From assembly GCA_964016885.1 (NCBI GenBank), contig OZ024747.1, positions 9,486,001-9,550,000 of the forward strand: a stretch of DNA of 64,000 nucleotides. The letters run 5' to 3'. The position numbers and the translations under genes were made by a program. This DNA is from Eledone cirrhosa. Lineage: Eukaryota. Of this stretch, positions 8,673 through 43,528 are shown one piece after another; within the stretch, counting starts at the first letter, position 1; each line of letters begins with the position of its first letter. Under the pieces are notes generated by a model. It made no database searches and had not been told where the DNA came from. It saw nothing but the letters and a program-made list of their open reading frames with translations.

Positions 8673-8738
8673 TATTTTATCTGATGAAAGCGCACCATAA
8701 TTTGCCTTGGTTGCCCTTGAAATTTGTATAATAAAATA
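8673..8738 (+). ncRNA. Type I hammerhead ribozyme motif, family B (Penelope-like pLTR fragment 8543-8780)
   Basis: uauuuuau-CUGAUGA-aagcgcacca...ugguugcccuu-GAAA-U uugu A-UA^auaaaaua; 8-bp stem I. Confidence 0.8.
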
Positions 8739-8880
8739 AATATGGTTTTATACATATAGTTTCCATTTATTAATATATTGTATATATATATATATATATA
8801 TATACAATATATATATATATATATATATATATATATATATATATATATATATATATATATATATATATATATATATATAT

Positions 8881-9660
8881 ATATCACGATACATAAACGG
8901 AGCCATAGACTCTCGCCGTTCCCTGTAAATAATATGCTCAAAGGATAGGAAATCCTGAGCTCTTTAAAATACAATATGTTGAAAAGGTAACACACTAGAG
9001 AGAGATACAGTGCGCTATCTATAAAACAGGGAAAAGCCACCAGTGTATGGAATCTATAACGTATGAAAGGCAGAATATAGACACGATAATTAAAAATATA
9101 AATTAAAGCGTAAATAAATACCTCTATAACTATATAACACACGTTCAAATCCAAAGTGATCTATTTCGCCAGTAAGTTGTTGACAGAAATGAAATAACCC
9201 AGGTTCATCAGCGTGTGTAAGGCTATACATTTCAGACAACACTAAGAGAATTTTTAAACCGACCGTCCAGCTACTCGTAGGAGAGAGAAGTCACAGCGTG
9301 TTTAAGGGCAGTGAACCAGTGGCCTCTGAGGGACGAGCTGCTAGAAAGGGCAGCCCAAAACCACTCAGAGAAGTGTGCTCAACCAAACAGAGAGAGAGAG
9401 TAAAGTGTGTTATAAGGAGCAAAATATCACGATACATTAACGGAGCCATAGACTCTCGCCGTTCCCTGTAAATAATGTTGGATTTGTACGTGTGTTATAC
9501 AGTTATACAGGTATTTATTTACGCTTTAATTTATATTTTTAATTATCGTGTCTATACTCTGCCTTTCATAGGTTATAGATTCCATACACTCGTGATTTTT
9601 CCCTGTTTTATTGATAGCGCACTGTATCTCTCTCTAGTGTGTTACCTTTTCAACATATTG
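8881..9660 (-). mobile_element. Fold-back element: unit of about 543 bp with terminal direct repeat (8881-8933 / 9424-9476) plus inverted arm (9479-9660 versus 8970-9153)
   Basis: Direct and inverted repeats read from the sequence; flanked by (TA)n; carries a hammerhead-like motif. Confidence 0.75.
9138..9217 (-). ncRNA. Hammerhead motif family C, cleavage triplet mutated (GAA; GUA in the inverted copy near 9488)
   Basis: cacacg-CUGAUGA-...-GAAA-uagauc acuuug gauuug-AA-cgugug. Confidence 0.55.
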
Positions 9661-10066
9661 TATATATATATATATATATATATATATATATATATATCTT
9701 TATATATATCTATCTTTATTTATGTATCTTTATATATCTATCTATACATATATATATATATCTTTATATAATATAATATATATATATATATATATATATA
9801 TATATATATATATATATATACATATATATATATCTTTATATATATATATATATATATATATATATATGTACGTGTGTGTGTGTATATATATTACTTTATC
9901 TCCCTTTACCATCATTTCCTTTGTTACTTAACTCCTCCCCACCCCTTTCAATATACTCCAACAATTATTCTTCCATAATCTTATGTGATTAGTATATTAA
10001 TTATTCCACGCCACCATCTAGCCTCTCCTCACACCCACCCGGTGGAGCGTCAGTAAATGTAGAACA

Positions 10067-10245
10067 CGTGGTTTGGCAGTATCGGTAGAGCGTCAGACGC
10101 TTTGCAGCATAGTTACGGTGCTTTGTGTTCTGAGTTCAAATCCCGCCGAGGTTAACTTTGCCTTTCATCCTTACGAGGTCGATAAAATAAAGTACCAGTG
10201 GTGTACTGGGGTAATCGTGGCCTTGTGCCAAAAGTAGTAACTGTT
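10067..10245 (+). mobile_element. tRNA-derived SINE family 1 (central domain resembles MetaSINE type)
   Basis: A-box-like TGGCAGTATCGG, B-box GAGTTCAAATCC, core GCCTTTCATCCTTACG.GGTCGATAAAATAAAGTACCAG; many copies in the window. Confidence 0.85.
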
Positions 10246-10644
10246 TTACAAAAAAGAAATCAACGATGCAGCGTCTACGTAATCGCTTGACCTGCTAGAA
10301 ATAGCAGTCAAATATACTCCAAACACGCGTCTTAAAATTGAGGGACACTTTTGGCAATGGAGTCCTAGGTATACAAAGGATAGAAATGCTAATAGCTGGA
10401 ATACCTTTGATCATAGGTTTGCTGATCTTGAGCTAAACAACAACAAAACCACGTCTCTGCCTTCACTACATTACCCCCTCCCCCTGCATCAAACACTTAC
10501 CCCTCTCTACTCTCATTTCAGTCGGCAATCTTTGAATTACTTGTCCTTGTATTACACGTTAAAGACAGAAGGACATATACGGAACCACGTGAGTCTGTGG
10601 CGTTCCCAAGCCTTTGAAACAAAGATCAGAGCATATTAATTGTT

Positions 10645-11290
10645 CTGGTGACCTCAGCCTCTGAGAGTAAAGTTCTCATTCCTAGTTGTACCTGGTGACC
10701 TCAGCCTCTGAGAGTAAAGTTCTCATTCCTAGTTGTACCTGGTGACCTCAGCCTCTGAGAGTAAAGTCCTCATTCCTAGTTGTACCTGGTGACCTCAGCC
10801 TCTGAGAGTAAAGTCCTCATTCCTAGTTGTACCTGGTGACCTCAGCCTCTGAGAGTAAAGTCCTCATTCCTAGTTGTACCTGGTGACCTCAGCCTCTGAG
10901 AGTAAAGTCCTCATTCCTAGTTGTACCTGGTGACCTCAGCCTCTGGTGACCTCAGCCTCTGGTGACCTCAGCCTCGGAGAGTAAAGTCCTCATTCCTAGT
11001 TACACCTGGTGACCTCAGCCTCTGAAAGGTCAGTCTTCACTCCTAGTTACACCTGGTAACCTCAGCCTCTCAGAGGTCAGTCTTCATTCCTAGTTACACC
11101 TGGTGACCTCAGCCTCTGAAAGGTCAGTCCTCACTCCTAGTTGCACCTGGTAACCTCAGCCTCTCAGAGGTTAGTCTTCACTCCTAGTTACACCTGGTGA
11201 CCTCAGCCTCTGAAAGGTCAGTCCTCACTCCTAGTTACACCTGGTGACCTCAGCCTCTGAAAGGTCAGTCCTCACTCCTAATTGCACCTT
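10645..11290. repeat. 47-bp minisatellite (CTGGTGACCTCAGCCTCTGAGAGTAAAGTCCTCATTCCTAGTTGTAC)n
   Basis: About 13 units in two sub-variants. Confidence 0.95.
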
Positions 11291-11559
11291 ATGTACATTA
11301 AAATATGTTATAGTGTCTGGACCTAGAAGATCAACAAAGTATTTTTTTCACCTCGCGAGGATATATTTCTCATTAGAGAGAAGAACCCCTGACGAGTTTC
11401 TGATAACAGGCGTGGAGGGGGAAGAGTATTTCTTAGTGCTACTTAAACCAACACTTGGACAAGAATAAAAAATTTGTCGATCGACTTTCATCAAATCGGA
11501 CTGAAGAAACAATGTTTCCGTTAGTCTTTCCAGTTGCTAATACTATCTATCGGTCGCAA

Positions 11560-11690
11560 TTCCAGGTAGAAGGAGCAACGTGAAATATAGTGTCTTGCTC
11601 AAGGACATAACGCATCGCCCGTTCCGGGAATCGAACTGACAACCTCACGATTGCGAATCCAATTCTCTAACCACCCAGTCACACGCCTTC
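11560..11690 (-). mobile_element. tRNA-derived SINE family 2, diverged
   Basis: Reverse complement gives GGTTAGAG...GTTCGATTCC...TGTCCTTGAGCAAGACACT. Confidence 0.65.
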
Positions 11691-41365: not shown

Positions 41366-41546
41366 ATATATATATATATATATATATATATATATATATA
41401 TATATATATATATATATGGAAAGTTATATTTAAACTGTTGGGTTACAACTAGTAAATATTTATAACTGATATAAAAGCACTCAACAAGTATTTGGAGTAT
41501 ATTTACGATATTAAATAAATGGAAACTATATTTATAAAACCATATT

Positions 41547-41612
41547 TATTTCATTATATATATTTCAGGGATATCATATTAACAATATGTTATGCCTTCT
41601 TCAGACAAAATA
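41547..41612 (-). ncRNA. Type I hammerhead motif, family B (CUGAAGA core)
   Basis: uauuuugu-CUGAAGA-aggcauaacauau...auaugauaucccu-GAAA-U auau A-UA^augaaaua. Confidence 0.75.
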
Positions 41613-41838
41613 CAATATAGACAGTTTTATAGATAAATAGATTTGACATACCGTTCAACATCGACTTGTATTTGAAAAAGTTGATTTGGCAGATCAAATC
41701 AACTTTTTCAAATACAAGTCGATGTTGAACGGTATGTCAAATCTATATATATATATATATATATATATATATATATATATATATATATATATATACCAAG
41801 ATATTAATAAATGGAAACTATATTTATAAAACCATATT

Positions 41839-41903
41839 TATTTTATTATATAAATTTCAAGGGCGACCAACCCAACCTTGGTGCGCTTTCATCAGATAAA
41901 ATA
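41839..41903 (-). ncRNA. Hammerhead family B in the inverted pLTR
   Basis: uauuuuau-CUGAUGA-aagcgcaccaa...uuggucgcccuu-GAAA-U uuau A-UA^auaaaaua. Confidence 0.8.
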
Positions 41904-42311
41904 CAAAATTAATTTGTTTTATAAATAACGACATACCCATGGAAATCAACCTTAACGGTCGGAAATTCGCAGGATAGTGGAAACTTATTAGGGGTAATTC
42001 AAAGTTATCTGTGAATATGCAAATGAATGTATGATAAATTGAAAAAAACAACCGTTTATTTAAATTATGCTGTAAGAAAGCGCACCAAGACTGGCTTGGT
42101 CGCCCTTGAAATATATATAATAAAAAGGGTTTTATAAATATAGTTTCCATTTATTAATATCTTGGAACATTTACTCCAGTAAACTGTTGAGTGCTCTATA
42201 TCAGTTATAAACATTTATGTTTGTTGGAATTCCAACAAATTAAATACAACTTCTACATATATATTGCTCCTTTATTGTTGAGCACTTTAAATTATAACTG
42301 ATTGATAAATA

Positions 42312-42887
42312 ATGGAATTCTTTAGGATCTCTTCTTCGCTAAAAGACACACCTCTACCTAAGAATAAGGGCTATCTCAAACAATTCATTGAGAAATCTGA
42401 CTCCTTTATACGAAGACTTAGATGGCGTGCCTTCCATTTCGATAGAAAATCAGATGAAAAAGCAAATAAATCCAACTTCGATATGATCTTCAAATCCAAG
42501 AAAAATCCACCTAACAACAAACTATTAATGGAATTTGAAAATGAAATAATATCAATTATACAAAACATCAAATTCAAGAAAAACCAATTCGCAGGCCAGG
42601 AATACCTTAAAGGTCTTAAGAATAATATAGAAAATCTTGAAAAAACTGAGAAAATCCTCGTAAAATCTGACAAAACCAACAATCTATACGGAATGCAAAA
42701 GGACGAATACAATAACCTTATATTGAAAGAATTAAGGAAAAACTACAAAATAACAACCAATGAAGACCTGGAAATGCTAAATAGAGAAGCTTCTGAAATA
42801 ATTCATAAATTAGGCATCGAAAATAGGACCGAACCCTTTATACCTAGAAAACCCAAAATTAACCTGAAAGACCACAAAAGAAACTAA
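42312..42887 (+). pseudogene. N-terminal 191 aa of a Penelope-like (probably Naiad-type) RT ORF, ending before the RT core
   Basis: SLKDTPLP...FIRRLRWRAF, KSDKTNNLY (DKT form of the PLE DKG motif), INLKDHK then stop; clade recognised from memory. Confidence 0.7.
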
Positions 42888-43463
42888 CTAATAAATAAAC
42901 AAACTGTGATTTTCAGTATCTTCCCAATTTAAAACATTAAAAACATATAAATAATCTTATTAACTCAGTTAATTTAATATAAACCAGTATCCCTCATAAC
43001 TTATTAAAACAATTATCTATAACATTCACTCATATATCTATTCTTCTATCTATATTTTTCTATCTATTGATTCTCCTACTTTACATCTAATTTACATCTA
43101 TTTTCAATTTATTTTTCAATATATCTTTATATATATTTATATTTTCTATATATTTAGTAAATATACGTAACATTAATATAAACTTAAGACTTATTTACGT
43201 TACATGAGTTCATCCTCTGATAAATTTCTTTCTTCCCTCTATCTCTCTATCTATCTCATAACAGTAATTTTTTCCTTCTCTCTTTCTTCCCTATCTTACA
43301 GCGTAATTTAAATAAACGGTTGTTTTTTTCAATTTTTCATACATTCATTTGCATATTCACACATAACTTTGAATTACCCCTAATAAGTTTCTATTATCCT
43401 GCGAATTTCCGACCGTTAAGGTTGATTTCCATGGGTATGTCGTTATTTATAAAACAAATTTTG

Positions 43464-43528
43464 TATTTTATCTGATGAAAGCGCACCAAGATTGGTTTGG
43501 TTGCCCTTGAAATATATATAATAAAATA
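43464..43528 (+). ncRNA. Hammerhead family B in the 3' pLTR, predicted cleavage after 43520
   Basis: 8-bp stem I, full core, 1-bp stem III with palindromic AUAU loop. Confidence 0.85.

Follow-up and report, generated by a model that had tools for sequence, protein, structure and literature searches.

The hammerhead ribozymes of Penelope-like elements (PLEs) are abundant, slow in vitro, unsettled in function and described as being without tertiary contacts. This report deals with such hammerheads in a 64,000-nt stretch of repeat-rich animal DNA (Eledone cirrhosa, assembly GCA_964016885.1, contig OZ024747.1, positions 9,486,001 to 9,550,000; hereafter the window) and with their relatives found by pattern searches over the whole 3.0-Gb assembly. 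Seven motifs in the window are, by their sequence, type I hammerheads predicted to be self-cutting, and by the same kind of evidence they are assigned to the terminal repeats of PLEs of the Hydra clade. The elements and their hammerheads are already known. The feature that concerns us here is the fourth pair of stem II (pair 4, positions 10.4 and 11.4), which is held in a non-Watson-Crick state inside a longer helix; this feature is real and likely selected. The survey of Lunse et al. 2017 is reportedly the largest of such hammerhead variants. No mention of the pair-4 feature was found in the text, as distinct from the figures, of the literature searched; that survey or the supplement of Cervera 2014 may show it.

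Among described systems, the Hydra-clade elements with a C-terminal endonuclease (EN+; Craig et al. 2021, PMC8557442) resemble the present ones in their RW[KR], DKT and CxCX5C motifs, apparently also in their single open reading frame (ORF), and in their (TA)n target, as well as in the inverted 5' copy, the sense hammerhead in the pseudo-long terminal repeat (pLTR) and the frequent U•U at pair 1. Their motifs mostly have a short stem II and C15.2-G16.2, whereas stem II here has at least eight pairs and the main clade has U15.2-A16.2 with an AUA triplet. By eye, none of the 25 distinct published Hydra motifs has C•C, C•U or C•A at pair 4: 24 are paired there in the authors' registers (15 as C-G) and one has a loop (PMC8557442 File S2). 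The minimal or atypical type I hammerheads of PLEs (Cervera and de la Pena 2014, PMC4209133) share a dimer-type palindromic helix III, a longer helix II, no recognisable loop-loop contact and a high diversity of families within one genome. That paper emphasises G10.1-C11.1 as conserved, together with an additional nucleotide at 9/10.1, whereas pair 1 here is A-U, G-C, G•U or U•U; its text describes a helix II bulge in Drosophila virilis and no fixed pair-4 mismatch. Canonical extended type I hammerheads, as in Schistosoma and the newt and axolotl retrozymes (PMC7229834, PMC11875169), have the same core and type I topology, and axolotl HHR_Amex1 has, as here, a one-pair stem III with a palindromic tetraloop. 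They place loop 2 of a 4-bp stem II on stem I, whereas here pairs 5-7 continue the helix through the non-canonical pair 4.

The hammerheads of the window and the parts of their host element are as follows.

8673..8738, forward strand: type I hammerhead, AAGC subfamily; C10.4 at 8691, C11.4 at 8715, predicted cut after A17 at 8730; loop 3 mutated (UUGU)
33081..33146, reverse strand: type I hammerhead, GGAC subfamily; C10.4 at 33128, C11.4 at 33104, A17 at 33089
35509..35564, reverse strand: type I hammerhead, GGUC subfamily; C10.4 at 35549, C11.4 at 35529, A17 at 35514; first stem I pair broken
37373..37437, reverse strand: type I hammerhead, AAGC-AUACC subfamily; C10.4 at 37419, C11.4 at 37396; pair 3 mutated to A•C
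41547..41612, reverse strand: type I hammerhead, AGGC subfamily (core CUGAAGA); C10.4 at 41594, C11.4 at 41570
41788..42077, reverse strand: inverted copy of the element's 3' repeat, 94.8% identical to 43294-43579; hammerhead at 41839-41903, C10.4 at 41885, C11.4 at 41862
42312..42887, forward strand: N-terminal fragment of a Hydra-clade Penelope-like ORF with RWR and DKT motifs; shares 71% identity with an intact frame of 745 aa
43294..43670, forward strand: 3' repeat (pLTR) with (TA)n at its end; hammerhead at 43464-43528, C10.4 at 43482, C11.4 at 43505, A17 at 43520
39533..39644, reverse strand: hammerhead with a 93-nt stem II domain; G10.4•U11.4 (39634/39548); homologous to the motif L572
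32670..32702, forward strand (also at 5423 reverse, 14256 forward and 45770 forward): short-stem hammerhead family, serving as control; U•U at pair 1, C-G at pair 4

An earlier note on this window had described seven hammerheads with C opposite C at pair 4, an AUA cleavage triplet and a one-pair stem III closed by a 4-nt loop that is palindromic AUAU in three of them. All of this was borne out: C10.4 faces C11.4 and the triplet is AUA in every motif, the single stem III pair is U15.2-A16.2 in all seven, and the loops read AUAU (three), AUGU (two), UUGU and UUAU (one each). The hammerhead core (C3 U4 G5 A6 N7 G8 A9, G12 A13 A14, A15.1-U16.1 and H17, with the letters CUGANGA...GAAA) is complete in all seven. 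The open end lies in stem I, as in the type I layout, and stem I has eight pairs in six motifs, its first pair being broken in the one at 35509. That motif (C•C at the first stem I pair) and the one at 37373 (A•C at pair 3) look like decayed copies, since intact relatives pair at the broken positions. At the gathering score, the Rfam hammerhead models matched none of the seven; a tRNA-like sequence gave the only match in the window. The statement that sequence turnover around the mismatch is complete proved too strong. The motifs at 41839 and 43464 are the inverted and the 3' terminal repeat of a single insertion and agree at 94.8% over 290 nt; with flanks included, likeness is 67-88% among five of the seven, and only those at 33081 and 35509 are distant (50-64%); the seven therefore amount to fewer than seven independent cases.

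Two side observations concern stem I. In each of the seven window motifs, an AAUAAA hexamer begins no more than about 8 nt behind the predicted cut (for example 8730-8740 and 35521-35502), and most related families have it too despite turnover of stem I; it is possibly a poly(A) signal lying inside stem I. Furthermore, the core GAAAU has a complement in UAUUUURU, the 5' strand of stem I, and in the TATC family in an upstream AUUUC (41547-41612; L172:1620), and the predicted pairing probability of stem I is low in many copies. Pairing of this strand with the core may be a co-transcriptional trap that keeps monomers inactive.

The assignment of the host elements to the Hydra clade follows from RWR, DKT, CxCX5C, (TA)n targets and inverted 5' copies, which fit the definition given in PMC8557442. 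Relatives of the ORF fragment at 42312-42887 are open frames of about 745 aa, and the AGGC subfamily, to which the motif at 41547-41612 belongs, adjoins open frames of about 750 aa elsewhere in the genome. A 745-aa single frame has YRDD at 360 and the CxCX5C linker ahead of its C-terminal domain; in L153, RWR is at 45, DKT at 126 and the linker (CNCRDRSKC) at 604. Pfam gave no match for the ORF fragment or for two full frames (E 0.1), so that the GIY-YIG endonuclease call rests on motifs. Sense-strand hammerheads flank the ORF about 230 nt before it and 1.1-1.5 kb after it (pLTR, ORF strand) in elements of about 3.6-4 kb, which insert into (TA)n and have inverted 5' copies. Helix III is self-complementary in the main families (AUAUAUAU, AUAUGUAU, AUGCGCAU, AUGAUCAU) and in six of seven lineage representatives, while the window copies at 8673 and 41839 are mutated there. 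Scans of metagenome and viral collections gave at least 173 loci, at least 11 of which passed a loose filter; none of these was a convincing hammerhead, and no homologue was found among the loci listed. As a side observation, fold-backs inside the hammerhead were seen in 1,183 insertions, in many of them at the stem II loop (L251-L265), which suggests that the stem II hairpin may prime 5' inversions.

Pattern matches put these hammerheads at about 100,000 copies in the genome. A pattern with pair 4 left free had 94,443 matches, against 58 for the reversed-pattern control. Pair 4 is C/C in 63,175 of them (66.9%), C/U in 24,023 (25.4%), by subtraction C/A in about 3,186 and C-G in 329 (0.35%), and a base other than C stands at 10.4 in 3,730 (3.95%). 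As the reversed C/C pattern matched nowhere, the C/C motif is not a product of chance. These counts do away with the idea of an invariant C-C: what stays the same is an unpaired C10.4, with no G opposite it, and not C•C itself. Position 10.4 is mutable, T being found in 21 of 30 fetched non-C copies; among the matches listed, the C/G and non-C copies are scattered across all subfamilies and look like point mutants. The mismatch is not tied to the AUA triplet, for a family with a GUC triplet keeps C•U in nine of nine copies. A further 11,870 matches (control 311) came from another pattern that had a pyrimidine at 10.1; among those listed, most combine U•U at pair 1 with C•C at pair 4. U•U at pair 1 occurs in about 10,000 motifs (L171-L199), and C•A or A•A in other Hydra-linked families; the canonical G10.1-C11.1 pair is therefore dispensable in the Hydra clade.

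The protein tree is built from 25 element copies, all of this genome. In it, the AUA families and the GUC-triplet family form one clade (ultrafast bootstrap 98), and its deepest branches share 45-55% protein identity. Fourteen motif clusters were assigned to this clade, those without an ORF link by motif likeness. All 14 have C10.4, opposite C in 11, U in two and A in one, and none has a Watson-Crick pair 4; around it, pairs 2, 3, 5 and 6 covary, each taking at least three pair types. On a 13-family tree, parsimony counts no change at 10.4, where other positions average 2.8 (P about 0.06). At this P value, invariance by itself is weak evidence, the more so because 11.7 is likewise unchanged. 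The stronger evidence lies in the missing pairing: it is one mutation away, a C-to-G change would add 3-7 kcal/mol of predicted stability, and C-G does arise in the 329 copies, yet it heads none of the clusters. On these sequence comparisons, selection very probably keeps a non-Watson-Crick pair 4 as a structural feature. The selected element proposed in the earlier note thus stands as far as the unpaired position and its covarying flanks are concerned, but it is broader than C•C, namely a wobble-type pair in which 11.4 is nearly always a pyrimidine.

Beyond the main clade, the stem II domain is much longer in about 39,900 further motifs (control 700), several of which are Hydra-linked. At pair 4, the Hydra-linked long-stem motifs have C•C (CGGC/CAGC), G10.4•U11.4 in three cases and A•C in one. 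Pair 4 is non-Watson-Crick, with a pyrimidine at 11.4, in each of the six Hydra lineages that are securely linked to an ORF, compared with two of 30 instances at pairs 2, 3, 5, 6 and 7 of the same lineages (Fisher 1.4e-5, a value overstated because the lineages are related). L562, L573, L270 and L289 were not counted, their ORF links being unconfirmed; the ORF links of the TATC family are probably separate insertions. The motif L572, 510 nt behind the end of a Hydra ORF, has A•C at pair 4, and the window motif at 39533-39644, identical to it in 96 of 153 columns, has G•U; these homologous motifs thus swap one pair for another that is isosteric with it (PMC3708525). The stability cost of G•U at pair 4 is small (2-5 kcal/mol), and this agrees better with geometry than with weakening. 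As a separate observation, the stem II domains of these about 39,900 hammerheads and of about 6,500 more measure 40-125 nt and are often branched (L529-L608), and some of the hammerheads form retrozyme-like tandem units of 680-990 nt without a Hydra ORF.

In canonical hammerheads, loop 2 lies just beyond pair 4 and contacts stem I near U1.7, which makes stems I and II parallel (PMC3088659, PMC11875169); the contacts between the two stems lie near U1.7 and at the nucleotides capping pair 4 (PMC11875169). Here, stem II goes on pairing where loop 2 would be, so that the usual loop-loop contact would not be able to form. Our main reading, to which we give a probability of roughly 0.45, is that pair 4 of the long stem II would instead be a wobble-shaped docking site letting stem II pack against stem I. 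Two motifs would form a dimer by way of helix III, with cleavage following the NUH triplet, and the wobble would move the 11.4 pyrimidine toward the major groove, leaving room for minor-groove packing on stem I. The model for this is the along-groove packing motif of ribosomal RNA, which uses a wobble with a pyrimidine on the 3' strand and in which the polarity of G•U matters (PMC2879513); because it uses such a wobble, pair 4 may permit the same kind of packing. The likeness is one of analogy only: in that motif, polar G•U permits one helix to pack by its minor groove on a Watson-Crick pair of another (PMC2879513, PMC3708525), whereas the pair proposed to do so in the main clade is C•C or C•U.

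Of the roles that the earlier note had suggested, a tertiary contact with stem I is thus the best reading, but without a fixed Watson-Crick partner: no conserved G is found at a fixed place in stem I across the clusters. Slipped registers that pair C10.4 with G8 or G12 fit, on inspection, only some families. A dimer interface is unlikely, since the self-complementary helix III already explains dimerisation and stem II would, in the fold of PMC4209133, point away from helix III. It is tempting to extend the docking reading to a third route by which long-stem Hydra hammerheads reach the active fold, namely helix packing at a conserved wobble instead of the loop-loop and pseudoknot contacts of natural hammerheads, but we regard this as tentative and rather doubtful. 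In that extension the wobble would be pair 4 here, and pair 3 in the motifs published from cnidarians, molluscs and hemichordates.

The main rival is a recognition site, in which the mismatch would be read by the element's reverse transcriptase-endonuclease protein or by a host chaperone and would license cleavage or packaging, each lineage reading its own pair. It owes this place to a lizard PLE hammerhead that cleaves only when the PLE protein is present (PMC11167929) and to the strictness of C10.4, which exceeds that of 11.4 in one clade while other clades have another pair. Wobble and pyrimidine mismatches are, moreover, common protein handles (PMC3708525). The fixed position and the exchange of G•U for A•C between homologous motifs fit RNA geometry without any protein, and we consider a recognition site unlikely. 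The mismatch might also be a brake: with the three pairs of stem II next to the core weakened by it, most transcripts would escape cutting and remain available as templates. In many natural copies, pairs 2-3 have a low predicted probability, which in most exceeds 0.9 once pair 4 is changed to Watson-Crick; in vitro, the dominant template is uncut RNA (PMC11167929), and no pile-up of 5' ends was seen at the cut site in a small sample in which matches between families blurred the picture. A mismatch or bulge anywhere at pairs 2-5 could act as a brake, but the position is held at pair 4, with pairs of the wobble type only, and G•U weakens the stem little; such a role appears improbable.

A quite different explanation, to which we attach a similarly low likelihood, is that C10.4 is held at the level of DNA, for example as a pyrimidine-purine promoter step in the pLTR, or is merely inherited, so that non-pairing would be a by-product. 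Position 10.5 is a purine in 14 of 14 clusters, promoters of PLEs lie in pLTRs (PMC6765202), and the P value for invariance, about 0.06, also speaks for it. It leaves unexplained why G is avoided at 11.4 while the neighbours pair, and likewise the G•U and A•C found elsewhere. Nor do the data suggest a start site at 10.4/10.5, as 23 truncated 5' ends and, among those listed, the fold-back junctions scatter over stem II in a small and biased sample.

Apart from the borderline parsimony result, a number of findings weigh against docking at pair 4. The length of stem I ranges between 4 pairs and 8 or more, and it offers no fixed partner base. The invariant base in the main clade is 10.4, but the packing model gives more weight to 11.4, which changes (C, U, rarely A), and C•C+ is not isosteric with G•U (PMC3708525). 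The published Hydra motifs tell both ways: by eye, all five with a stem II of at least seven pairs have 5'G•U3', which speaks for a wobble, but it stands at pair 3, one pair earlier (PMC8557442 File S2). A seventh lineage, L560, with an unpaired stem base, was left out of the six-lineage count. One homologous group mixes G•U (one member) with G-C (two), and L532/L567 show A•C and G-C. As to generality, short-stem families are Watson-Crick at pair 4 in 11 of 12 cases, and a rule that a long stem II entails a non-canonical pair 4 was rejected, only nine of 26 long-stem units being non-Watson-Crick there (P=0.54; counts by position 5, 1, 9, 6, 5 and 10). These 26 units are what remained of 29 after removal of three (weak folding, single copy); families were merged by hand, and hits chosen for their pair-4 variants were excluded. 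A looser clustering chained the long motifs into one group. No parent element could be tied to the Watson-Crick families among the 26.

The window contains some further features.

4-2241: long C/A-rich tandem array of 48-nt units with extreme GC skew
17713-18960, forward strand: open frame with five tandem C2H2 zinc fingers, presumably resembling the glass transcription factor
24845-24904, forward strand: weak tRNA-like match (Rfam, 30.1 bits), probably a tRNA-derived repeat
35744-36325, forward strand, and 46810-47199, reverse strand: fragments of the C-terminal domain of another retroelement (DATC...GETSG-like motifs); the fragment at 35744-36325 had no Pfam match

Elsewhere, fragments of a different Penelope-like clade with YSRYVDD and LPVLDTEL motifs were noted at L288, L289, L561 and L047.

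A position that is kept non-canonical across about 100,000 copies and many lineages points to selection on the fold of these hammerheads beyond their core. A single nucleotide pair is involved, and its substitution would separate a packing contact from a protein site and from a brake. If packing is true, hammerheads could be activated in a further, new manner that ribozyme design might use, and packing would also explain why standard descriptors miss these motifs.

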